Positions 765 through 64,000 of a DNA stretch of 64,000 nucleotides are shown here, piece after piece. The position numbers were made by a program, and so were the translations under genes. Numbering within the stretch: position 1 is the stretch's first letter; each line of letters starts with the position of its first letter. Source of the stretch: a bacterium (lineage in GTDB: Bacteria; Cyanobacteriota; Vampirovibrionia; LMEP-6097); assembly GCA_038146805.1 (NCBI GenBank), contig JAYQSH010000003.1, forward strand, positions 117,807-181,806, read 5' to 3'. Below the pieces are notes generated by a model. That model was given only the letters and a program-made list of their open reading frames with translations, ran no database searches and was not told where the DNA came from.

Positions 765-841
765 GGCTGGGTAGCTCAGTTGGTAAGAGCGGTGGATTCA
801 TAACCCACAGGCCGGCAGTTCAAATCTGCCCCCAGCTACCA
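765..841 (+). tRNA. tRNA with CAT anticodon (Met; an Ile2-lysidine type cannot be excluded)
   Basis: Cloverleaf read by eye: acceptor GGCTGGG/CCCAGCT, D arm GCTC-AGTTGGTAA-GAGC, anticodon loop TTCATAA, T arm GGCAG-TTCAAAT-CTGCC, encoded CCA. Not initiator-like. Confidence 0.85.
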
Positions 842-36482: not shown

Positions 36483-36559
36483 TGGCGGAGACGAAGGGAC
36501 TCGAACCCTCGGCCCCCTGCGTGACAGACAGGTGCTCTAACCAGCTGAGCTACGCCTCC
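36483..36559 (-). tRNA. tRNA-Asp (GTC)
   Basis: Reverse complement reads GGAGGCG-TA-GCTC-AGCTGGTTA-GAGC-A-CCTGT-CTGTCAC-GCAGG-GGGCC-GAGGG-TTCGAGT-CCCTT-CGTCTCC-G-CCA. Confidence 0.9.
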
Positions 36560-51839: not shown

Positions 51840-54417
51840 ATGCAAGCGTTATCCTGTCAAGAAATTAGAGATTTATGGGTTGAGTTTTTTACCAAGAAAT
51901 GTCCCAGTGCTCATAAAGCACATAAAATCAGCATCGTTGGTTCCGGACAATCCAACCTTACTTTTAAATGCGGCTGGAATGGTGCAATTTGTACCAATTT
52001 TTTTGGGGACAAAACCTGCAACAGAACCTCCAAGAGCTGTAACAATTCAAAAATGTGCACGTGTAGGTGGTAAAGATAGTGACTTAGAAAATATTGGTCG
52101 CACTGCAAGACACCATAGCTTTTTTGAGATGTTGGGAAATTTTTCTTTTGGCGACTATTTTAAACAGCAAGCTATTCCATGGGCTTGGCAATTTGTAACT
52201 GAAGAACTTAAATTAGACAAAGAAAAACTCTATGTTTCCGTATTTGCTGGTGATGAGCAAAATCCTTTTGATCAAGAAGCTTACGACACTTGGAAAGAAA
52301 TAATCTCAGAAGATCGAATCTGGAAAATGTCGCGTAAGGATAACTTCTGGGGTCCACCAGGAGAAACAGGTCCTTGTGGTCCATGCAGTGAAATTTATTA
52401 TGAAGTAAATCCATCAGCAACAGAATTTGATGATAGATATACTGAAATTTGGAATTTGGTTTTTATGGAATTCTTCAAAGATGAAAACGCAAACTTTAGC
52501 GCACTTGAGAAAAAAAATATCGATACAGGGGCTGGACTTGAAAGAATTGCAACAATTCTACAAGATGTCAACAATACTTTTGAAACAGATGAATTGTTTT
52601 TTGTATTAGAAAAAATCGCATCACGTCTTGCTATCAAGTACCAAGGAAATAATTCTGAAACAGATTTATACTTAAAAATTATTACAGACCATTTGCGCTG
52701 TGCCGCTTTTCTTATTGCTGACGGGGTTCGTCCTTCTAACTTAGGGCGTGGTTATGTACTAAGAATGATAATTAGAAGAGCCTCAAGATTTGTTTATTTA
52801 ATTCAAAACAAAGCTGAAGCTTTTTTGACTTACCTAGCTAAAGACCTAGCGCAAGCTTACCAAAAAGCTTACCCAGAACTCAACACAAATCTTGCACAAA
52901 TTGAATCATGTTTAGAAAAAGAAGAACTCGCCTTTGCAAAAACACTCGAACAAGGACTTGAAATTTTAAACAAAAAACTTAGCGAAATTTCTAACAAAGA
53001 ATTAGATGGCGAATTTGCGTTTAATTTATACTCAACCTATGGCTTTCCTTTAGAGCTCACCAAAGATATAGTGGAACAACAAAATATCAGTATAAATCTT
53101 GAAGAGTTTGAAATAGCAAAAGAAAAACATACGCAAGCATCAGGCTCTGGTGCTGTTGCAAAATCAGTAGAACAAAATACATTTATAGCTGATATTTTAA
53201 AAGAACATGGCAAAACTAAATTTATTGGTTATCACGATAATTTAAAAGCAGAAGCCAAAGTACTCTATGTTGCAGACAATAAAGTAGTTTTGGATCAAAC
53301 TTGTTTTTATGCTGAATCAGGCGGTCAAATTGCAGACATTGGTAAACTTGCAAACACAAAAGTTACAAATGTAAAATCAATTGAAGGAGTCTTTGTACAT
53401 CAGTTAGAATCAAGTGCTGAATTAAAGGTAAACGATATTGTCAGCTTGGAAGTTGACAAAAATAATCGAGAATTCACCAAGAAACATCACACCAGTTGTC
53501 ACTTGTTACAAGCGGCGCTGAGAAATACACTAGGCTCTGGCATACAACAAATGGGTTCACAAGTTGGTGCTGAGTATACTAGGTTTGATTTCAATTTAGA
53601 TCGTGCAATGACTAAGCAAGAAATAAGCGCAGTTGAAAATCAAATTAACTTATGGATCGAGAAAGACTTAAGCGTTGAAACAAAAGTAATGCAGTTTGAT
53701 GATGCTGTTAAAGCAGGTGCTTTGAGTTTCTTTGAAGACAAATACGATGACGAAGTAAGAGTTTTGTTTATTGGTGATGCATCAATAGAACTTTGCGGTG
53801 GCACTCATGTTGATAAGCTTTCAGAAATCAAAAATATTGTAATCGCTCAAGAAGGCTCTATTGCATCTGGTATTAGAAGAATAAAGCTCCTTGCAAACAC
53901 AGTCGCAGACGAATTTATCGCAGAAAAAGACAAAGCTTTTGCTGAGCAAAAAGCTCTTGAAGAACAAAAAGAAAAAGAGAAAGAAGCACAAAAAGCAAAA
54001 CTAAAAATCGAAAAAGAAGAATTGCTCGCTTTAACTAATTCTATTTTGGAGCAAGCTGATCAGAGTAATGAGACAAAAGTTGTAATTCTTTACGCAAATG
54101 AATTTTTTAATAAAGAATATTCAAGCGAAAGTATAAAGGCACTAGTTGAAAATTTAACAGCTAAGAATCCAGCATCGTTTTTAGTTTTTATTGCATGTCA
54201 CACAAATGACAAAGTTGTTTTTTATAGTGCCGTAAGCAATGATTTAATCAAAGAATTTAATGCTGGCAATATTGTCAAAGAAGCGGCAAAAATTTGTGGC
54301 GGTGGCGGCGGCGGCAGACCTAATTTTGCTCAAGCTGGTGGCAAAGATATTAGTAAAATTCATGAAGCAATTAGTTTTGTGAAGAATTTAGTATTAGGGC
54401 AAGCGGCAAATGCTTAG
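51840..54417 (+). CDS. alaS: alanine-tRNA ligase, with a +1 frame change in codons ~28-30
   Basis: ATG at 51840 encodes MQALSCQEIRDLWVEFFTKK (conserved EIR..FF). The body, SASLVPDNPTLLLNAAGM onward, is in the next frame. The junction is at the A4 run 51924-51927. Confidence 0.85.
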
Positions 54418-55780
54418 TATTCCTAGAGAAGAAATCAATGAATTAATAAACACATACGGAACAGCCGTGCCAAGATACACAAGCTACCCCACGGCTCCAG
54501 AATGGAAAGATGTTTTTTCTCAAGAACAATTTGAAGCGGCAATTGCAAAATCAAATCTTACACAAGAAGATTTTTCTTTGTATTTGCATATCCCTTTTTG
54601 TGAATCTCAGTGCTATTTTTGCGGTTGTAACGTAGTCATCAGCCCAAAGCACGGCATTGAAGAAGAATACCTAACTCACCTATTTAGTGAGATTGATTAT
54701 TACGGAAACTTATTTGACAAAGAAAGAAAAGTTGCACAAATGGCTTGGGGCGGAGGCACTCCAAGTTATTTGAGTGTCAAACAAATCTATGATCTTTACA
54801 AAAAGTTAGATGATAACTTTAATATGTACAAGAATAAAAACGATAACTATGAATATGCAATAGAGATTGATCCAAGAGTAACAAACAAAGAACAACTACA
54901 AGCTCTTTATGATTGCGGCTTTAATCGCCTAAGCATGGGGATTCAAGATTTCAATACAAGTACACAACTTGCCATAAATAGAATTCAAAGTGCTGAAGAT
55001 GTCTTTAACTTAACGCAGCAAGCTAGAGAAATTGGTTTTAATAGTATTAATTACGATTTAATTTATGGGCTGCCATTTCAAACAATGACTAGTTTCCAAG
55101 AAACAATTGCTGTTATCAAAGAACATGCACCTGACAGAATTGCTCTATTTAATTACGCACACTTACCTGAAATGATTGCGCATCAAAAAAAATATATTGA
55201 TGAAACGACTTTACCAGATACTAAAACTAAACTAGAAATTTTTGATAGCTCGGTTGTAGCATTTACAAACTTTGGTTATGAATTTATCGGTATTGATCAC
55301 TTTGCAAAAAAATCAGATTCTCTTGTAACTGCTTATAAAAACAAAAGTTTATATAGAAACTTTCAAGGTTATACAACTTTTTCTGGTTGCGACATGATTT
55401 CTTTTGGTATTACAGCAATTAGTGATATTCAAGGTGCCTATAAACAAAACGCAAAAAAGATGAACGATTATTACAAAGACTTTAAAATGGCCCAAAAAGC
55501 AAAATTCTCTGACACAAATGATATTACAAGAAGAACAATCATCAAAGAAATCATGTGCAACAACTTTGTTGTGATAAACAAAAATCATTTTTCGCATGAA
55601 ATAGAGCTATTAAACAGCTTCGCTAAAGATAATCTGCTTAAAATTTCTCAAAAAAATGAGGAGCTTGTAAATATAGAATTAACTAGCATTGGTAGGTTCT
55701 TTTCTAGAAATATTGCTAGTGTTTTTGATGACTACCTCAATAAAAAAACAGCATTCAAAGCATTTTCTCAATCACTGTAA
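54410..55780 (+). CDS. hemN: oxygen-independent coproporphyrinogen III oxidase (radical SAM)
   Basis: YLHIPFCESQCYFCGCN. Start overlaps the alaS stop. Confidence 0.85.
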   Translation: MLSIPREEINELINTYGTAVPRYTSYPTAPEWKDVFSQEQFEAAIAKSNLTQEDFSLYLHIPFCESQCYFCGCNVVISPKHGIEEEYLTHLFSEIDYYGNLFDKERKVAQMAWGGGTPSYLSVKQIYDLYKKLDDNFNMYKNKNDNYEYAIEIDPRVTNKEQLQALYDCGFNRLSMGIQDFNTSTQLAINRIQSAEDVFNLTQQAREIGFNSINYDLIYGLPFQTMTSFQETIAVIKEHAPDRIALFNYAHLPEMIAHQKKYIDETTLPDTKTKLEIFDSSVVAFTNFGYEFIGIDHFAKKSDSLVTAYKNKSLYRNFQGYTTFSGCDMISFGITAISDIQGAYKQNAKKMNDYYKDFKMAQKAKFSDTNDITRRTIIKEIMCNNFVVINKNHFSHEIELLNSFAKDNLLKISQKNEELVNIELTSIGRFFSRNIASVFDDYLNKKTAFKAFSQSL

Positions 55781-55839: not shown

Positions 55840-56610
55840 ATGGCAGCTGGAGCACCAGGTACTAATAATTTAAACAGTAGTTTTGCAAATGCCTCAAGAG
55901 CACTTAGCTCTAAGGTATCATCGCAAGGTTATGCAATTCGTGCTGAAGCTCAATCTGAAAGACAAGTTACCGTAAGACAAAATAATCAAATGGACCCTTC
56001 TTTCCTTGCTCGTATGGCATTAGAAGATGAGCTAAGAAAACGAGGCGGCGGTGGCGGTGGCTCAATTAAATCTTATAACCCCATGACATGGATTCCTTAT
56101 AGTTTTTCTTTACTTGCAAAAGCAATAGAACAAGCGCGAGCGGCAATAGCAAATCTAATAAATCAATCTTTAAATGCACTTGGCACATCAATAACAACAA
56201 GCATACAAAACACTTTTAACTTTTTGACTAAACCTTTAATCCCAATCAATAATTTTTTTAGATCTATCACTTTAAACATTACTAGAACCATGATTCAAGG
56301 TCTTAGAGATTTTGCTAAAAACCCAATTGCATTTAGTATGAAAATGGCAAACAATGCTATGCAAGGTGCAATGGCGATATTTGCGGCAGTAGTAAATGGA
56401 CTTAAAAAAATCATTTACGGTAAAGATGAAGCAGTCGCTGAAGCAGATCCAGAAGAATACAAAGAAGAAGGTTTACTGACAAAGCTTTTGGGATACTTTA
56501 AAAAACAAGATGAAGACCGTGAATCAAATGGCAAAAATTTAGGTTCACATATAAAGAACAAAGCAAAACTCAAAATTAAAAAAAGAACAGTCTTAAAATC
56601 AAATGCTTAG
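55840..56610 (+). CDS. hypothetical protein with a Gly6 linker and a long amphipathic/hydrophobic region
   Basis: ORF only. MAAGAPGTNN...RKRGGGGGGS, followed by an A/I/N-rich helical segment and a K-rich tail. Confidence 0.45.
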   Translation: MAAGAPGTNNLNSSFANASRALSSKVSSQGYAIRAEAQSERQVTVRQNNQMDPSFLARMALEDELRKRGGGGGGSIKSYNPMTWIPYSFSLLAKAIEQARAAIANLINQSLNALGTSITTSIQNTFNFLTKPLIPINNFFRSITLNITRTMIQGLRDFAKNPIAFSMKMANNAMQGAMAIFAAVVNGLKKIIYGKDEAVAEADPEEYKEEGLLTKLLGYFKKQDEDRESNGKNLGSHIKNKAKLKIKKRTVLKSNA

Positions 56611-56627: not shown

Positions 56628-57983
56628 TTAGTTGTTTTTAGAAAACTCTTTATTCAAAAATAAATTATCAGCAGCACTTTGACGGCGAATAGTCGCACCT
56701 AGTTGAGTGAATTTTTCTTCTAAGTTTTCATAGCCACGATCAAGGTGTTTTAAACCACGTACTTCGCTTATGCCTTCCGCAGATAAAGCCGCAACGACTA
56801 AAGCCGCCGCACTTCTCAAATCCTTTCCTCTAACAGAAGCTGATTGTAATTCTTTTACACCCTTAAATACTGCTATCTTACCGTTGATATCAACATTTGC
56901 TGCCATCTTTTTAAGTTCATCAGCATGTTGAAAACGTGAATCATAAATATTTTCTTTGACAACACTGGCACCATCAGCAATTGCAAGCATAGTTGAAAAA
57001 ATAGGTTGAATATCAGTTGAAAAACCAGGATACCAAACTGTTGTTAAATCAGTTGCTAACAAACGCTCAGCATTTCTTTGTACTTGTATATCTACAAGTT
57101 CTCTACCATCTAAACTTTTATTTGTTGCAAAAATTTTCACAGCAACTCCAGCATCTTCAAATTTTGAAAGTAAAGATTGTAAATCTTCTTCAATAACTTC
57201 TTTGGTTGTAACTGTACCACCAGTCATAGCACCCGCAATTAAATAAGTTGCAGCTTCAATTCTATCTGGAATACAAAAATGCTCTACGCTATGTAAGTCG
57301 TCAACAGTCTTTCCGTAAATATGAATATTTGAACTACCAGCACCTCTAATGTCGCAACCCATTTTGTTTAAAAAATTTGCAAGATCAACAATTTCAGGAT
57401 CTTGTGCTGCATTTTCTATTATAGTTTCGCCTTCTGCCATCGTTGCTGCAAGCATGATATTTTCAGTAGCACCATTAGAAGGAATATCTAAATAAATTTT
57501 TGTACCAATAAGCTTGTCTGCTTTTGCATGTATAAAACCATGCTCTTCTGTAATCACTGCACCCAAAGCTTTTAAACCTTTTAAATGTAAATCAATTTTA
57601 CGAGCTCCAATATTACAACCTCCCGGCATTGCAATTTTTACATCTTTAAATCGAGCTAACAAAGATCCCAAACAAACAATACTTGCTCTTAATTGATTAG
57701 CAAGTGTTAAAGGGACATAATTTGAAGAAAGGTTTGAACAATCCATTTCAATAGTTTTGCCATCAAAATTTATTTCACCACCCAAGACCTGAACAATTTC
57801 TGCCATAACACGCATATCAGACAAATTAGGTACATTTTTAATAGTGGCTGTGCCGTTTTTTAACATTAAAGCGGCAGCAACAATTTTAAGTGCAGAGTTT
57901 TTTGCACCAGAGATAGCAACTGATCCATTTAAGGCTTTTCCACCCTCAATAACTAAAAACTTTTCTGTTAATTTTTCAGACAC
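56628..57983 (-). CDS. murA: UDP-N-acetylglucosamine 1-carboxyvinyltransferase
   Basis: GAKNSALK and MPGGCNIGARKIDLHL. GTG start. Confidence 0.9.
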   Translation of the reverse strand: MSEKLTEKFLVIEGGKALNGSVAISGAKNSALKIVAAALMLKNGTATIKNVPNLSDMRVMAEIVQVLGGEINFDGKTIEMDCSNLSSNYVPLTLANQLRASIVCLGSLLARFKDVKIAMPGGCNIGARKIDLHLKGLKALGAVITEEHGFIHAKADKLIGTKIYLDIPSNGATENIMLAATMAEGETIIENAAQDPEIVDLANFLNKMGCDIRGAGSSNIHIYGKTVDDLHSVEHFCIPDRIEAATYLIAGAMTGGTVTTKEVIEEDLQSLLSKFEDAGVAVKIFATNKSLDGRELVDIQVQRNAERLLATDLTTVWYPGFSTDIQPIFSTMLAIADGASVVKENIYDSRFQHADELKKMAANVDINGKIAVFKGVKELQSASVRGKDLRSAAALVVAALSAEGISEVRGLKHLDRGYENLEEKFTQLGATIRRQSAADNLFLNKEFSKNN

Positions 57984-58098: not shown

Positions 58099-59163
58099 TT
58101 AAGCGAAGCAATAGTTTTGCACTGTTTTTATAAAAGTTTTGGCAGATTCAACAGGTACACTAGGTATAATCCCATGACCTAAATTCGCTATATACCCGGG
58201 GGCTGATCCAGCTTGCTCAAGCATAATTCGAGTGTTTTTTTCTACCTGCTCAGGGCTTGCAAGCAAAGCACAAGGATCAAAATTACCTTGAATAGCAATA
58301 TTTTGCCCAGCAACATACTCTCTAATATCTTTTAAATTCACACGCCAATCAACACTCAAACAATTTGCGCCGGTCTGTAACATGTAATCTAAAACATTAC
58401 TTACACCATTTACATATAAAGTAATTGAAGCGTTAGGATATTTTTCTCTAATGTTTGAAACAATTTTTTGTTGATACGGCAAAGCAAATTCTTGATAATC
58501 TTTTTGACTAAGTACAGAAGCCCAAGTGTCAAACAACTGCAAAGCATGAACACCGGTATCAAGTTTATTGAGTAAATAATTACTAACTGAAATTGTAAGT
58601 TTTTCTAGTAAAAGATGCATAGCTTGTGGCTGCAAGTACATCATTTTTTTTATATGTGCAAAATCCTTTGAGCCACCACCTTCTATCATGTAGCTAGCAA
58701 GAGTCCAAGGTGCACCAGCAAAACCCAAAATAGGAATTTCATTATTTAACTTTGCGGCAATCTCTTCGATAGTTTCATAGACATAATGACACTGATTTTT
58801 TAATTGCTCTTTATCAAGCGCAATCAATTTATCAATATCCTCACAACTACGAGTAGGATTTACAAACCTTGGCTTACCCGTATCAAAATCCAAACCTGCA
58901 CCCATAGGCTCAAGCAAAACTAAAATATCCGAAAACATAATAATGGCATCGACACCTAGAATTTCATATGGCTGTAAAGAAACCTCTGCAGCTTTTTTTG
59001 GATTTTTACAAAGTTCCAAAAAAGACATTTGCGACCTTATCGCTTGATATTCAGGAAGATAGCGACCAGCTTGGCGCATCATCCATACCGGCGCACGATT
59101 TGTTTTTTCACAATTAAGTGCTCTTAAAATTAAATCGTTCTTTATACTTGTCGCAGACACCAT
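58099..59163 (-). CDS. hemE: uroporphyrinogen decarboxylase
   Basis: PVWMMRQAGRYLPEY. Confidence 0.9.
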   Translation of the reverse strand: MVSATSIKNDLILRALNCEKTNRAPVWMMRQAGRYLPEYQAIRSQMSFLELCKNPKKAAEVSLQPYEILGVDAIIMFSDILVLLEPMGAGLDFDTGKPRFVNPTRSCEDIDKLIALDKEQLKNQCHYVYETIEEIAAKLNNEIPILGFAGAPWTLASYMIEGGGSKDFAHIKKMMYLQPQAMHLLLEKLTISVSNYLLNKLDTGVHALQLFDTWASVLSQKDYQEFALPYQQKIVSNIREKYPNASITLYVNGVSNVLDYMLQTGANCLSVDWRVNLKDIREYVAGQNIAIQGNFDPCALLASPEQVEKNTRIMLEQAGSAPGYIANLGHGIIPSVPVESAKTFIKTVQNYCFA

Positions 59164-59202: not shown

Positions 59203-59325
59203 CTAGGCTTCCGCTATCAAACCAAAAGCAGATATCATCAATATGATAAAAAATATAATTGCATAAAAAATTATATTTTCAAAAACTCTATCAACTCTAG
59301 TTTTGTCTTTTACTTTATCTACCAT
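59203..59325 (-). CDS. unannotated 40-aa single-TM peptide (below the ORF-track cutoff)
   Basis: MVDKVKDKTRVDRVFENIIFYAIIFFIILMISAFGLIAEA. ATG lies 3 nt after the stop of the MvhD-like gene. Confidence 0.4.
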   Translation of the reverse strand: MVDKVKDKTRVDRVFENIIFYAIIFFIILMISAFGLIAEA

Positions 59326-59328
59326 TTT

Positions 59329-59772
59329 TTATGCGCCTTCCTTCTCAAGCTCAGCAACGACTTCTTGCTTAAACTCTTCAACTCTATCTTTAAAAGTCCC
59401 AACTTGAACTTCTGACATCCATAAACCTTTAAGTCTATTTTTTGGTACAGATTTTTTAATCATAGGAGGTCTTACACCCAATAACCTTTCTCTACAAAAT
59501 TTATTTCCTTCTCTAAAGTGACAATCACCAATCTGGCAACCCATCGCTATGACACCGTCTGCACCGGCATTGAAAGCCGACTCAATCATACGAGGTTGAA
59601 TCATTCCAGAACAAGGCACTTGTACAACATAGGCATTATTAACACCATCAAGATCTCTGCCATGTTGCCCAGAAAGATGACCATCAAGATTAACACTTCT
59701 CTCGCAAGCAATAACCATAACTTTGACGTTGTCGGTATTTTTTGTTTCTTTAGTTATTTCTTCAGTAGACAT
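59329..59772 (-). CDS. MvhD/FlpD-like hydrogenase iron-sulfur subunit family protein
   Basis: VMVIACERS...VVQVPCSGMIQPRMIESAFNAGADGVIAMGCQIGDCHFREGN matches the methyl-viologen-reducing hydrogenase delta subunit signature. Confidence 0.75.
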   Translation of the reverse strand: MSTEEITKETKNTDNVKVMVIACERSVNLDGHLSGQHGRDLDGVNNAYVVQVPCSGMIQPRMIESAFNAGADGVIAMGCQIGDCHFREGNKFCRERLLGVRPPMIKKSVPKNRLKGLWMSEVQVGTFKDRVEEFKQEVVAELEKEGA

Positions 59773-59787
59773 AAATTTTCCTTTTTA

Positions 59788-60936
59788 CTAAGCAGCAACA
59801 GCCTCGTCTTGTTCTAAAGCGATTCTAATATCATCCATCACGACTGGCGACATTGTATGTGGTAGTTCAATAGCATCAAAATTACATGCACCAACACACA
59901 AACCACACTCAGCACAACGTTCATCAATAACGATAGCTAGTTCTTTAAACTTAGAACCATCGTTTCTTGGTGCCATATAAATTGCTTCATAAGGACAATC
60001 AACAGAGCAAAGTTTGCAACCAACACATTTATTTGAGTTTACACTTGCAGGCTCATGATCTTTTGACTCAACTAAGCTCGGTAAAATAGTGGCAATAACA
60101 ACACCAGCAACAACCATTAACCAAGTTAAAGGATAACCTATGATTTTCATGACTGGGAAAATCCATAAATAGAACCAATCAATATCAAAATATGTTGGTT
60201 GCACAGTGAAATCTGCTTCAGGACCTGAAATCGCTGGGAACATCGCTGAAAAAACTAAAACAATACCAGCAAGTAAACAGCCAATAGCCCAAGTGACATT
60301 GACTAAAGGTCTTGAGATTCTCATATAATGTACCCATAGCATTACTAGCAATGACAAAGAAATTCCAGCATGAATAAAAAATGACATTGACATTGTCAAG
60401 TTTGAAATCACATTATCATTTATAAATGCATGAGAAAGAGCATCACCAATAAAAGGAACAGCGGCTAAAAACTCAGAAACCATTGTGACAATAATAAAAG
60501 ACCTTTCATCCCAAACCAAAATATAGCCAGATATACCAATCGCTAACATCATAATGGTAAGTGCGATTCCAGAATACCAAGCAATAATTCTATACTCTCT
60601 GTATCTGTCAGTGAAATAAACACGCAAAGCATGTAACCAAACAGCAAGCATCATGCCATCAGCAGCGTATCTATGCAAACCTCTAATAATATCTCCAAAA
60701 GGAATTTTTTGAGTAATGTACTCAACACTTTGGTAAGCCGCTTCAAGTGTACAAGTGTAATAAGCAAACAACAACAAACCAGACAAAAAGAGCATCCACA
60801 TAAAAAAGTTTGGAATAGCTCCGTGGTAATAAAGTATATTTTGCTCTGAGCCAAAAACCTTATTCAAAAGATCTTCTAGCTTCAATAGAGCTTTTTGTCC
60901 TTCTCTTACTATCTTAGTTAATACAGCCGATATCAT
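59788..60936 (-). CDS. cytochrome b (four His ligands, PEWY-like region) fused to a C-terminal 2x[4Fe-4S] ferredoxin domain
   Basis: RGLHRYAADGMMLAVWLHALRVYF (His spacing 14), GYILVWDE, FFIHAGISLSLLVMLWVHY (His spacing 14), DWFYLWIFP, then CVGCKLCSVDCP and CAECGLCVGACN. Confidence 0.75.
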   Translation of the reverse strand: MISAVLTKIVREGQKALLKLEDLLNKVFGSEQNILYYHGAIPNFFMWMLFLSGLLLFAYYTCTLEAAYQSVEYITQKIPFGDIIRGLHRYAADGMMLAVWLHALRVYFTDRYREYRIIAWYSGIALTIMMLAIGISGYILVWDERSFIIVTMVSEFLAAVPFIGDALSHAFINDNVISNLTMSMSFFIHAGISLSLLVMLWVHYMRISRPLVNVTWAIGCLLAGIVLVFSAMFPAISGPEADFTVQPTYFDIDWFYLWIFPVMKIIGYPLTWLMVVAGVVIATILPSLVESKDHEPASVNSNKCVGCKLCSVDCPYEAIYMAPRNDGSKFKELAIVIDERCAECGLCVGACNFDAIELPHTMSPVVMDDIRIALEQDEAVAA

Positions 60937-60955
60937 AAAAATTCTCCAGTATAAA

Positions 60956-61291
60956 TTACTTTGCCTGCGTTACCTCATAACCCTCACTTGGTCTTTTGTT
61001 TGCAACTACTATCGCAAAGAAAGTTGAAATTAAAGAAAAACCTAAACACAAACCCCAAAGCAAAGTAGAAATTCTATCTTGTTTACTTGGATCAATTTCA
61101 ATGCCAAATAAACCTGAAATCGCATTTATATACTTTAAGTTTTGCAAGGTACCTTCATCGAAATAACTAGTATCAGTACCAATCAACTCAAAGTAGTTCA
61201 TCAAGAAAAACATGAAACCAAAAAATGCCAAATTAAATAAAGCGACAAATAATGGAATATAAAATGATTTGATATCTTCTTTTGTAAACAT
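60956..61291 (-). CDS. small membrane protein (3 TM)
   Basis: Hydrophobic ORF tightly packed within the operon. Confidence 0.5.
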   Translation of the reverse strand: MFTKEDIKSFYIPLFVALFNLAFFGFMFFLMNYFELIGTDTSYFDEGTLQNLKYINAISGLFGIEIDPSKQDRISTLLWGLCLGFSLISTFFAIVVANKRPSEGYEVTQAK

Positions 61292-61294
61292 AAA

Positions 61295-61582
61295 CTAATT
61301 TTCCTTAACTTTAAACCTTTTATATAAACTATCAAATGGAGCAAAACTAACTCTAAGGTTGTCTTTTGCTTTTTCCTCTGAATAAATCTCAAAAGCCATA
61401 AAAAACAATGACCCAGCCAAAGCAAAAGCACAAAGAGCAATTACAGCATAAGCTGTAACTGTATCGCCGGCATTGAAATATTTATAAGAAGTAAAAAACT
61501 TAGTAATAGCTACAGTAGCAACTATAAAAGCAAAATAGAAAGCAAAATTTAATTTCTTTTTGTTTTGTTTTGTCGCTGACAT
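61295..61582 (-). CDS. small membrane protein (2 TM)
   Basis: Hydrophobic ORF tightly packed within the operon. Confidence 0.5.
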   Translation of the reverse strand: MSATKQNKKKLNFAFYFAFIVATVAITKFFTSYKYFNAGDTVTAYAVIALCAFALAGSLFFMAFEIYSEEKAKDNLRVSFAPFDSLYKRFKVKEN

Positions 61583-61584
61583 AG

Positions 61585-63087
61585 TTAAGCTTTTTGCTCC
61601 TCTATTTTTGCTTGAGTATTTTCATAAGCCCAAATAACAACCATTAAGGCAAAGAAACCACCATAAAAAATCCAATTACGACCCCAAGAACCATCCGCAA
61701 AAAATGTTTTATCTAATAAATTATTCAAAGGCAAACCAAAATAAGGAACTGTATGAATCCTAGATAAATAAAGCAATTGGAAAATAGTATAAACTAACAT
61801 TAATTTCCATCTGTCAATTTTTGCGTACTGTTTTTGTGACAAATATATTCCAATAGCAACAATCATAGTACTTCCAAAAATCCAGTACGGTGGGTCTGTA
61901 TTAATATTTGCGATATTTAGAATAATTAAAACAGAAAAAACAATTGCATTAATCGCACCCATAATAGACAAGCACATGACAATTGGTCTTCTGTGAATTT
62001 TAGTCTCTGGTGATCTATCAAAAAACGGCATCAACAATACAGTTGCTGGAATCAAAATAGTAACAAAAGTAGCAAGTACTGGTTCAATGTATTTGTACAT
62101 TTGATACAAAGCTAGAAAATACCAGTCAGAAAGAATTGGTAACGGAGTTACAGAAGGATTGGCACGAGCACCAAATTCTGCAGGGAAAATCATTGCTGCG
62201 GCAGCAATCATACCAATAACAAGAAAGCCTTCAATCCATGGTAGATTAAAACGTTTCTTTTTATTAGAGTAAAAATATAATTCAACAATAATTAGACCAA
62301 TTGTTGAAAGTGCCATGTGCATTGAATAAAATCTGGTAATTGTTGCTTGTCCAATTGCAGAACCACCTAAAAGAATTTGTTGAGTAGTCATTCCTAAGTT
62401 AAAATTTATATACTCGTTTAAAAGCTTCATGTCCCACAAAATACCTCCGCCTTCTTCAACAGGAACAGCAGGTAAACTTGTTGGCACACCCCATTCAATA
62501 AGTTTGTTCACAATCGTTGCTCCCAGAAAGGCAAGATTTAATCCAAATTGATCCATGTAACCCGGGAAGGTAGCAAATACTTTTGTAGCCCAAAAAGCTC
62601 TTTGGTTCCAAATTAAAAGATATCCAGAAAGTCCAGAATAAAAACCAAGTAAGAGCAAAAAGAAACAAACCCAAAAATTAAGCTCACGCTTACCTTTATA
62701 ATCAGCGCAAATCACAATACGATAAATTTTCAAAGTACAAATAATGATAAAGGCATCAGCACCATACTTGTGCATGCCACGTATCAACCATCCTGTTGGA
62801 ATGTGGTCTTGAATATTCATGATACTTGAATAAGCCTGCTCAGCAGTTGGAATATAAAACATCATTAACACAGCACCGGTGACAATCGTTACAATCCAAG
62901 TGAGCCACTGTAAAGGACCAAGCTTATACCAAACATTTTCTTTTTGTTTATCAACAAAAGTTTCGTCAAAAAAATCAATATTTTTCAAGCGCGGCATTAC
63001 CATCTTGTTGATTACTTCATCAATAGAAGGCAACATTGAAAGTAAATTTGCAAGACCTTGTTTATCGTTTTTTATTTCAGCTGACAT
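61585..63087 (-). CDS. long cytochrome b homolog (b6 plus subunit IV plus extra C-terminal TMs) lacking both bH/bn His ligands
   Basis: [27 protein letters not shown] aligns with b6 [64 protein letters not shown] and [10 protein letters not shown] are also present. Confidence 0.75.
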   Translation of the reverse strand: [500 protein letters not shown]

Positions 63088-63692
63088 TATGAAATACCTC
63101 CAGACTCAAGCGAACTAATTACTATATCAGCACCCTCAATTTTGAAATTAAATTTAAATGGTGATCTTGGAGCAGGTCCAGACACAACTTTTCCACGCCC
63201 CTTTGTATCAGTTTGCATGGGGTCATACACTGATAAGTGACAAGGACAAGCAAAGACTTTTTGTCCGGGAAACGGAGTGTAGTTGTAACCAGCAGCAACT
63301 TCCGCTTCAACTGGAACAAAATTGAACACACAACCTAAGTGCGGGCATACTCTTGAAAAAACAACAAAGTTTGGAAAACCATCCATATCAGGAGTTCTAA
63401 CAACAGCACCCGGAATAGTTTTTATTTGCTCACCAACTGCAGTATATTCACGATTTGCTTCTTGGAACATAAAATATTTAAACGACCAAGCAGAAGGAAA
63501 ATCAGTCATTGAAAACTTAATTTGTTTTACTGGAGCTGGTTTATCAGGTCTTTTGAAAATTTCGGCAGTCGCTGTAGGACCCGAACTAGGCTTTAAAAAC
63601 CTAACAAAAGGTGAAGCAAAAATCGCAGCCAGTGTACCTACTACTGGGATTGCTAATAAACCTTTTACAAAATCTCTTCTATCAAATTTCAT
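63087..63692 (-). CDS. Rieske [2Fe-2S] protein with a Tat signal
   Basis: MKFDRRDFVKG, CPHLGC and CPCHLSVYD. TAATG overlap with the cytochrome b start. Confidence 0.85.
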   Translation of the reverse strand: MKFDRRDFVKGLLAIPVVGTLAAIFASPFVRFLKPSSGPTATAEIFKRPDKPAPVKQIKFSMTDFPSAWSFKYFMFQEANREYTAVGEQIKTIPGAVVRTPDMDGFPNFVVFSRVCPHLGCVFNFVPVEAEVAAGYNYTPFPGQKVFACPCHLSVYDPMQTDTKGRGKVVSGPAPRSPFKFNFKIEGADIVISSLESGGIS

Positions 63693-64000
63693 TTAATTAC
63701 CCTCACCTATAGATTTTTTGTACTCTTGTAATTTTTCACGCCCAAGATCTAATCTATCTTTTTCTTGAGTATGAGAGAACTGTCTAACATAACGAACTAA
63801 TTTCCAAATCATTTCTTCATCAAATTTGATTTTCTTATCAAAATCGTATCTGTTTTTCCAAGCAGGCATTGCTGTCCAAGGAATACCATACATTAATTCA
63901 TTGAAGAGTTTTTCATCTGTTCTGGTATAAAGTCTTTCTGTCATAGTAAAGTTTGCAGGCGGTGGATACAAAGACTTATGTAAGTTACCATCACCATGAC
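63693..64000 (-). CDS. c-type cytochrome, N-terminus outside window
   Basis: Frame continues upstream of the track start as (C)HGDGNLHKSLYPPPANF, the end of a CXXCH motif. MPAW-type Met ligand region IPWTAMPAWK. Confidence 0.65.
   Translation of the reverse strand, partial: HGDGNLHKSLYPPPANFTMTERLYTRTDEKLFNELMYGIPWTAMPAWKNRYDFDKKIKFDEEMIWKLVRYVRQFSHTQEKDRLDLGREKLQEYKKSIGEGN

Follow-up and report, generated by a model that had tools for sequence, protein, structure and literature searches.

How does a Rieske/cytochrome b enzyme dispose of its low-potential electron when its operon encodes two different cytochromes b, one without the ligands of haem bH and the other carrying a ferredoxin domain? 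The question is raised by a 64,000-nucleotide (nt) stretch of a genome from the Vampirovibrionia (Cyanobacteriota; GenBank assembly GCA_038146805.1, contig JAYQSH010000003.1, positions 117,807 to 181,806), hereafter the window. Eight minus-strand open reading frames (ORFs) occupy positions 59203–64000, and an ORF check confirms all eight. Counted from the cytochrome c gene onward, the junctions between them are 0, −1 (an overlap), 2, 3, 19, 15, and 3 nt. A gap of 39 nt then separates the last ORF from hemE. The tightly packed gene set that an initial annotation had described ahead of hemE is thus borne out. So is the gene content that it listed: hidden Markov model (HMM) searches recover the Rieske, cytochrome b, cytochrome b–Fer4, and FlpD domains, and orthologues identify the c-type cytochrome. 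We propose, with a probability of about 40%, that the products include a split b core, in which a long cytochrome b and a dihaem cytochrome b (cytochrome b′) are wired to a cytoplasmic iron–sulfur (Fe–S) chain.

The long cytochrome b (500 amino acids (aa); 61585–63087, minus strand) matches Pfam Cytochrome_B (6e-25) and Cytochrom_B_C (4.6e-9). It is composed of a b6-like part and a subunit-IV-like part in one polypeptide, plus a C-terminal extension, and its best PDB matches are cytochrome b6 plus subunit IV. In a residue-level alignment with the cytochrome b6 chains of the PDB, residues H106 and H257 fall on the ligand positions of haem bp/bL, and residues K120 and Y271 fall on those of haem bn/bH. 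Among 76 orthologues, the two His residues of bL are invariant, while the bH positions carry Lys or Arg (25/50) and Tyr (76/76), never His. Since Lys and Arg interchange at the first bH position, it is ruled out as a haem ligand. The quinol-oxidising (Qo) motif, PILSDWYFL, is a PDWY-like variant of the PEWY type and is invariant in the 76 orthologues. The protein therefore has the ef-loop Qo motif of the bc1/b6f superfamily and lacks the four His residues, for two b haems, of Qo-forming cytochromes b. Judged from these residues, the long cytochrome b is predicted to bind one haem and to act as a Qo/haem-bL module that lacks both bH and ordinary Qi chemistry. It could not run an ordinary Q cycle alone, because neither haem bH position carries His in any of the 76 orthologues, and this strengthens the earlier idea of a rewired low-potential branch. 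In a four-way alignment, the Rieske-adjacent cytochrome b of an unrelated metagenome locus, L084, retains all four His residues, indicating that the loss of bH is specific to the Melainabacterial type of operon. In addition, the alignments show that the CxGG Cys for haem ci/cn is absent from both cytochromes b of the operon, its place being taken by Lys in the long cytochrome b and by Tyr in the fusion described below. Neither b6f hallmark, the haem ci Cys or the split between b6 and subunit IV, is thus present. Compared with cytochrome b6 and the other aligned cytochromes b, residues ~180–232 of the long cytochrome b hold an insertion of ~45–50 residues after the cd region, which is probably periplasmic and near Qo.

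The second cytochrome b is fused to a ferredoxin domain (382 aa; 59788–60936, minus strand). It matches Pfam Cytochrome_B (5e-28) and, at the C-terminus, Fer4_7 (2x[4Fe-4S]; 3.8e-10). Its cytochrome part has six transmembrane (TM) helices, A–F, and an ef loop bearing the motif xDWF(Y/F)L. Residues H88, H102, H189, and H203 and the eight Cys residues, arranged as two CxxCxxCxxxCP motifs, are invariant in 109 relatives. An AlphaFold2 model of the fusion has a predicted local distance difference test (pLDDT) score of 85.9 overall and above 90 in the membrane part. In Foldseek, the model superposes on bc1 cytochrome b over ~285–310 columns, covering helices A–F and the ef loop. The two cytochromes b of the operon share 23% identity. 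The initial annotation had called them paralogs, but they are not close ones; the second belongs to a separate, very large, oxidase-linked family.

The adjacent gene (59329–59772, minus strand) encodes a soluble MvhD/FlpD-like [2Fe-2S] protein of 147 aa. Its match to Pfam FlpD (3.4e-22) scores 79.2 bits, against a cut-off of 22.3, and it aligns to MvhD of the Mvh–Hdr structure (PDB 5ODC) at 4.9e-15. All 74 orthologues keep residues C23, C54, C79, and C84, so both the FlpD domain and its Cys residues are in place. The Fer4 domain and the FlpD protein align as one stretch to the C-terminal ferredoxin and MvhD part of HdrA2 (residues ~570–770). The Fer4 domain is predicted to lie in the cytoplasm, because six TM segments follow a cytochrome-b-type N-terminus and there is no signal peptide, and the MvhD-like protein is likewise predicted to be cytoplasmic. 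The operon ends with a 40-aa peptide with a single TM segment (59203–59325, minus strand; TM 18–36), and a homologous ORF is found at the same position in 41 loci.

The remaining genes encode the Rieske protein, the c-type cytochrome, and two small membrane proteins. The Rieske [2Fe-2S] protein (201 aa; 63087–63692, minus strand) has a twin-arginine signal and one TM anchor (residues 12–30). Its match to Pfam Rieske is weak (1.9e-4), and that to NCBIfam Rieske_proteo is 7e-12. The boxes CPHLGC (C116, H118, C121) and CPCH (C149, C151, H152) are invariant in 63 orthologues and correspond to the CxHxGC…CxCH cluster-binding boxes of the bc1/b6f superfamily; the twin arginine is kept as well. The c-type cytochrome gene (63693–64000, minus strand) runs off the window end, leaving its 3′ part of ~102 codons. 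The fragment has no Pfam match and no CxxCH, both motifs lying beyond the window end. We call it dihaem because all 71 of 71 orthologues (260–294 aa) have two CxxCH motifs. Between the two cytochrome b genes lie a 95-aa protein (61295–61582) and a 111-aa protein (60956–61291), both on the minus strand and each with two predicted TM segments, for which Pfam and NCBIfam profile searches return no family match. The 95-aa protein has orthologues in 61 loci and a conserved position; the 111-aa protein has 25 orthologues and is detectable by sequence only in Caenarcaniphilales-type loci. Kinship of these small TM proteins to a 116-aa ORF upstream of the fusion in SAR324-type clusters was considered and rejected (hhalign probability 1–2%).

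The eight genes do not stand alone. Contig L167 is 98.8% identical to the window over 4,383 nt and continues beyond the window end. In its upstream continuation are the genes for CcoN and for a CcoO with a fused c domain, then two 66-aa ORFs and the complete gene of the 260-aa cytochrome c. Therefore, the window genes are the distal half of a larger operon, of ~10 kb in total, and not the free-standing eight-gene operon first described. The feature that marks a cbb3 oxidase, adjacent and co-oriented ccoN and ccoO with a c-type domain, lies outside the window, in L167 and in all relatives.

To compare gene order, one genome per GTDB species was scanned; 224 genomes contain a relative, and order was compared in the best 80, counts covering loci whose contig has enough flank. 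The best 80 form three groups: Caenarcaniphilales-type genomes (65–86% identity), to which the window belongs, groundwater Melainabacteria (52–55%), and Obscuribacterales (45–49%). Throughout these three orders, the sequence of genes is CcoN, CcoO-c, FixS/CcoS-like, a small ORF, dihaem cytochrome c, Rieske, and long cytochrome b, followed by one or two small TM proteins, cytochrome b–Fer4, FlpD, and usually the ~40-aa TM peptide. In all 80 genomes, two small genes separate the gene of the long cytochrome b from that of the dihaem cytochrome b downstream. The same order in every one of the species-representative genomes whose contig allows the comparison means that the arrangement is conserved far beyond chance. 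It also answers the objection, raised at the outset, that the cytochrome b–Fer4 and MvhD-like genes might not be syntenic with Rieske/cytochrome b in relatives: they are syntenic in all 80. A promoter and terminator scan finds no terminator-like site at any gene junction and promoter-like matches at chance level, which neither proves nor disproves a single transcript.

In a homologue search, the named relatives of the fusion protein are assigned to Candidatus Melainabacteria or Obscuribacter. Soo et al. (Science, 2017) reportedly described a Melainabacterial fused complex III/IV operon. Matheus Carnevali et al. (2019, PMC6349859) present the same locus as such an operon, with petC/petB-like genes after a C-family (cbb3) oxidase; the passages of that paper on the operon call the petB and petC genes b6f subunits and are silent on a second cytochrome b and its ferredoxin domain, on an MvhD-like gene, and on the absence of bH ligands. 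Aerobic Melainabacteria with this operon include Obscuribacter. Eight records of metagenome-assembled genomes with a Melainabacteria-type operon (L005, L014, L015, L017, L041, L048, L054, and L073) encode proteins 45–74% identical to that of the window. Their titles name Gammaproteobacteria, Chloroflexota, Oculatellaceae cyanobacterium, Drouetiella sp., or Flavobacterium psychrophilum, and the contigs are probably mis-binned or mislabelled.

Outside this lineage, the cytochrome b–Fer4 and MvhD-like proteins usually occur as one chain. The two window genes are collinear with a single protein, P0129 (40% and 36% identity), and together have the features of a cytochrome b–Fer4–FlpD family: a six-TM dihaem b, 2x[4Fe-4S], FlpD, and a P-side Asp. 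The window thus holds a split version in two adjacent genes. A profile search of 1.84 billion representatives finds 474 clusters at E<1e-30, of which the best 150 were inspected. FlpD is in the same chain in 121 of these 150, and in 87 of the 121 the chain goes on into a tail, no shorter than 120 aa, made up of a TM helix and a ~140-aa periplasmic domain. The TM helix after the FlpD domain is at the position matching the 40-aa peptide of the window. The four His residues, the eight Cys residues, and the P-side Asp of the PEWY-like motif are essentially invariant across the 150. A word-indexed search finds more than 5,157 homologues at E<1e-20. Those with taxonomic names include Bradyrhizobium, Pseudolabrys, Xanthobacteraceae, Rhodoplanes, Betaproteobacteria, SAR324, and Thermodesulfobacteriota, under generic names only, such as 'hydrogenase iron-sulfur subunit' and 'cytochrome b N-terminal domain-containing protein', and NCBIfam has no model specific to the family. 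Since cytochrome b′, Fer4, and MvhD form one polypeptide in other phyla, they work together. Searches with the periplasmic tail, including one with a 12-sequence profile, give no match in Pfam or the PDB and none to a known copper domain.

The neighbours of these genes within 6 kb were surveyed in 80 metagenome loci, 68 fused-type and 12 split-type. SCO1 (55 loci) and/or a COX1-type gene (43 loci) is found in 61 of the 68 fused-type loci, and a Rieske gene in none. The usual order is COX2–COX1–CtaB-like–SCO1–fusion, and a second COX1-like gene often comes next. All 12 split-type loci resemble Melainabacteria, and the six with enough upstream flank all have the Rieske block. The module is generally oxidase-linked and is joined to Rieske/cytochrome b only in Melainabacteria. 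A NuoF-like gene lies beside or between fused copies in four loci, three of the 68 (L096, L098, and L099) plus L084, which was found separately; the calls rest on Pfam families for L084 and L099, and on similarity to the L084 protein for L096 and L098.

Variants of the family occur. In L084 (4617–10121), two cytochrome b–Fer4–FlpD genes flank the NuoF-like gene (FMN/NADH, [4Fe-4S]), downstream of COX2/COX1, and the same contig carries a set that resembles the anammox type, composed of Rieske, a four-His cytochrome b, multihaem c, and a GltD-like FAD/NAD(P) Fe–S protein. P0154 (676 aa) has SCO1/SenC N-terminal to cytochrome b–Fer4. P0285 (L086, 4206–6515), of 769 aa, has a CxxCH cytochrome c domain at the end of its periplasmic tail. 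Many of loci L087–L166 have a second, shorter COX1-like gene (~460–480 aa) after the fusion (for example, L088, 14715–16109, and L111, 12108–13565), while L141 has hemerythrin and a small cytochrome c downstream instead. Identity of the fused family with 'orf1' of the ammonia-oxidiser cluster norSY-senC-orf1 is unsupported, as the homologous Bacillus cluster has a 190-aa six-TM cbaD after senC (PMC3475470); a search for NE0686 gave nothing useful.

In the split b core that we favour, quinol would presumably be oxidised at a Qo site that the Rieske protein and the long cytochrome b form together. The high-potential electron would pass from the Rieske protein via the dihaem cytochrome c to the cbb3 oxidase and O2. 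The electron on haem bL of the Qo subunit needs an outlet, and the dihaem cytochrome b′, encoded alongside in every genome, is the natural one. Sequence and operon context suggest that the two cytochromes b form a mixed b core, in which this electron could cross to bL′ of the second cytochrome b and then to bH′. An inter-monomer bL–bL route is known in bc1 dimers. The Fe–S/MvhD arm would link bH′ to a cytoplasmic redox partner encoded outside the operon, either feeding electrons in or equilibrating bH′ with a cytoplasmic carrier. Incoming electrons would end either on the oxidase or on quinone, the latter at a putative n-side site of cytochrome b′. Such input or equilibration is more likely than draining to a low-potential acceptor, because MvhD is a donor-side wire, because NuoF-like genes are neighbours in four loci, and because export to NAD+ or ferredoxin would be uphill. 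In those Mvh/Hdr complexes that have been characterised, MvhD takes electrons from a donor enzyme and passes them inward. An electron moving from the P to the N side towards NAD+ or ferredoxin would have to climb in potential and work against the membrane potential; export should be workable only to an acceptor more positive than quinone.

A more specific form of this reading, which we hold as tentative and regard as rather doubtful, is a heterodimeric complex III with divided labour. A Qo/haem-bL monomer would be paired with a dihaem monomer that is hard-wired via 2x[4Fe-4S] and MvhD to carriers in the cytoplasm, for example ferredoxin, NADH, or hydrogenase, and the cytoplasmic reductant and the low-potential chain of the Q cycle would meet at one n-side site.

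No account of this composition was found in the literature searched, which did not cover Soo et al. 2017. The layout, a bH-less Qo cytochrome b with an Fe–S-bearing second dihaem cytochrome b, is not known to have been described for any complex III studied so far. The operon shares with b6f and bc1 the Rieske cluster boxes, a cytochrome b with b6 and subunit-IV-like parts, a PEWY-type Qo motif, and a c-type cytochrome, and with the bc1–cbb3 or bcc–aa3 supercomplexes a linkage to the oxidase. It differs from b6f and bc1 in a Qo cytochrome b without haem bH ligands, in having two different cytochromes b instead of a homodimer, in lacking the haem ci Cys, and in a cytoplasmic 2x[4Fe-4S] plus [2Fe-2S] extension.

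Conceptually, the nearest complexes are the Rieske/cytochrome b complexes of anammox bacteria and clade G, although their parts are different. The passages that Dibrova et al. (2017, PMC5600118) devote to them, citing Kartal 2011/2013 and de Almeida 2016, describe a cytoplasmic NAD(P)-binding Fe–S oxidoreductase subunit. As presented there, they too have a bc-type cytochrome b wired on the n-side to a soluble-type Fe–S module, with a large GltD-like FAD/NAD(P) subunit and multihaem c proteins. By contrast, the present operon has no flavoprotein, an Fe–S domain fused to the second cytochrome b, an MvhD adaptor, and a Qo subunit without bH; a GltD-like FAD/NAD(P)-binding Fe–S subunit and multihaem c proteins are absent from the window operon and from the operons of its relatives.

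With HdrA2 and Mvh–Hdr, the operon shares the contiguous Fer4 and FlpD alignment and the [2Fe-2S] Cys residues of MvhD, so that the wire is homologous, whereas it contains no HdrA-type flavoprotein, HdrBC, or hydrogenase. In the operon neighbourhoods of the 80 genomes, no gene for an HdrA-type flavoprotein, hydrogenase, or formate dehydrogenase is found in the operon or within 10 kb. Unlike the membrane partners of the HdrE/NarI type, the membrane protein here is a bc-type cytochrome b. Qmo (QmoABC) combines a membrane dihaem b, Fe–S domains, and an MvhD-like domain. The fused cytochrome b–Fer4–FlpD proteins are the closest in sequence (36–40% identity), sharing all haem and cluster ligands, the P-side Asp, and an association with heme-copper oxidases; they differ in being single-chain, usually with an extra TM helix and periplasmic domain, and in lying beside COX2/COX1/CtaB-like/SCO1 with no Rieske, whereas the window form is split and lies inside a Rieske/cytochrome b–cbb3 operon.

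Four observations weigh against the split b core. The pLDDT score of the Fer4 domain in the fusion model is just 60–75. No cytoplasmic partner is encoded in the operon. The invariant P-side Asp of the fusion points to a P-side quinone or other site that would fall outside the proposed scheme. The family of the fusion is tied to heme-copper oxidase, SCO1, and CtaB-like genes in 61 of the 68 fused-type loci and never to Rieske, so that its primary role may concern the oxidase rather than the Q cycle. That last point leads to a competing explanation, possible in our view though on balance unlikely, in which the cytochrome b–Fer4 and MvhD proteins form a stand-alone transmembrane wire that is placed in an oxidase operon and is not part of the Rieske enzyme. 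Cytoplasmic electrons would pass through the two b haems to the periplasm, either as a direct supply for the oxidase or for maturation, reducing Cu(II) or an SCO-type chaperone, and the wire would be functionally comparable, by analogy, to CcoG or to the eukaryotic dihaem metalloreductases. The oxidase linkage of the fused-type loci fits this, as do the SCO1 fusion P0154, the TM helix and periplasmic domain in which the fused forms end, and the Melainabacterial operon itself, which has an oxidase and the maturation factor CcoS but no CcoG. The stand-alone wire, however, does not account for the long cytochrome b having lost haem bH. In all 80 genomes, the whole Rieske/cytochrome b block lies between the oxidase genes and the fusion, which follows directly after the block. 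The periplasmic tail, moreover, matches neither FixG_C nor a known copper domain and is absent in the window, and the function is assigned by analogy only: neither the window proteins nor the tail domain of the fused relatives match FixG or FixG_C, which makes the likeness to CcoG/FixG an architectural one.

The initial annotation had proposed that the low-potential Qo electron does not return at Qi but exits by way of cytochrome b′ and the Fe–S clusters, here the two [4Fe-4S] clusters and MvhD, towards an acceptor in the cytoplasm. This would amount to a quinol-driven redox loop or bifurcation. The structural facts that suggest the split b core fit this equally, and P to N is the normal direction in a b-haem chain. 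It is established that a NarGHI-type route from quinol via a dihaem b and cytoplasmic Fe–S clusters to an acceptor is workable and charge-separating, and a similar role has been proposed for the anammox Rieske/cytochrome b complexes with cytoplasmic NAD(P)-binding Fe–S subunits (PMC5600118; PMC12954380). We nevertheless consider this route improbable: the operon encodes no acceptor enzyme, MvhD is on the donor side in known complexes, and these heterotrophic aerobes have no obvious need for such a route. Going by standard potentials, an electron at bH, working against the membrane potential, should be unable to reach NAD+ or ferredoxin; the acceptor would have to lie above the quinone potential, and no such acceptor is apparent.

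An ordinary b6f/bc1-type complex III, with the extra genes as passengers and the absent bH ligands as an alignment or sequencing artefact, would agree with earlier genome annotation of the genes simply as petB and petC (in the relevant passages of PMC6349859) but is very improbable, given that the substitutions recur in 76 independent orthologues whose flanking bL ligands align perfectly to solved b6 structures, that the extra genes have retained all cofactor ligands and the same position in 80 genomes, and that neither cytochrome b has the CxGG Cys for haem ci.

To our knowledge, every Rieske/cytochrome b complex that has been characterised is a homodimer with haems bL and bH in each cytochrome b, and inter-monomer bL–bL transfer has so far been probed only in engineered bc1. 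A lineage-wide loss of bH that is offset by a second dihaem cytochrome b would, if the split b core is correct, be a natural test of that transfer. The Fe–S/MvhD arm makes it testable whether electrons can pass between cytoplasmic carriers and the low-potential chain of a bc-type complex, a long-standing question for b6f cyclic flow and for the anammox complexes; a heterodimeric wired complex III, if true, would be a built-in version of the debated ferredoxin-to-b6f route of cyclic electron flow, given that its hosts are a sister lineage to the oxygenic cyanobacteria. The hosts are the closest non-photosynthetic relatives of cyanobacteria, and the layout bears on the evolution of respiration and of b6f. 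On the reading of a heterodimeric wired complex III, the fused relatives would be a new, widespread class of oxidase-linked membrane redox modules. The family exposed here comprises more than 5,000 cytochrome b–Fer4–MvhD proteins, encoded beside heme-copper oxidase genes in common bacteria of soil and sea, among them Bradyrhizobium.

Downstream of the operon, hemE (uroporphyrinogen decarboxylase; 58099–59163, minus strand; Pfam 3.8e-127) has no terminator-like site before it. Its distance from the operon ranges from ~10 to 1,100 nt in relatives, and in Obscuribacterales a sigma-70 gene on the opposite strand takes its position. Therefore, hemE is a neighbour and not a member of the conserved unit. 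The ORF after hemE (56628–57983, minus strand) is probably murA, a name taken from the 86%-identical relative, where a 451-aa EPSP_synthase-family gene has the corresponding position. In that relative, an ORF of the same size with no recorded Pfam match also corresponds in position to a 256-aa plus-strand ORF of the window that is rich in Asn, Ser, Gly, and Lys (55840–56610), and alanyl-tRNA synthetase-sized and radical-SAM-sized ORFs within 51880–55780 match it in position as well. The remainder of the window has ordinary chromosomal gene content, including a tRNA-Met (CAT; 765–841, plus strand) and a tRNA-Asp (GTC; 36483–36559, minus strand).

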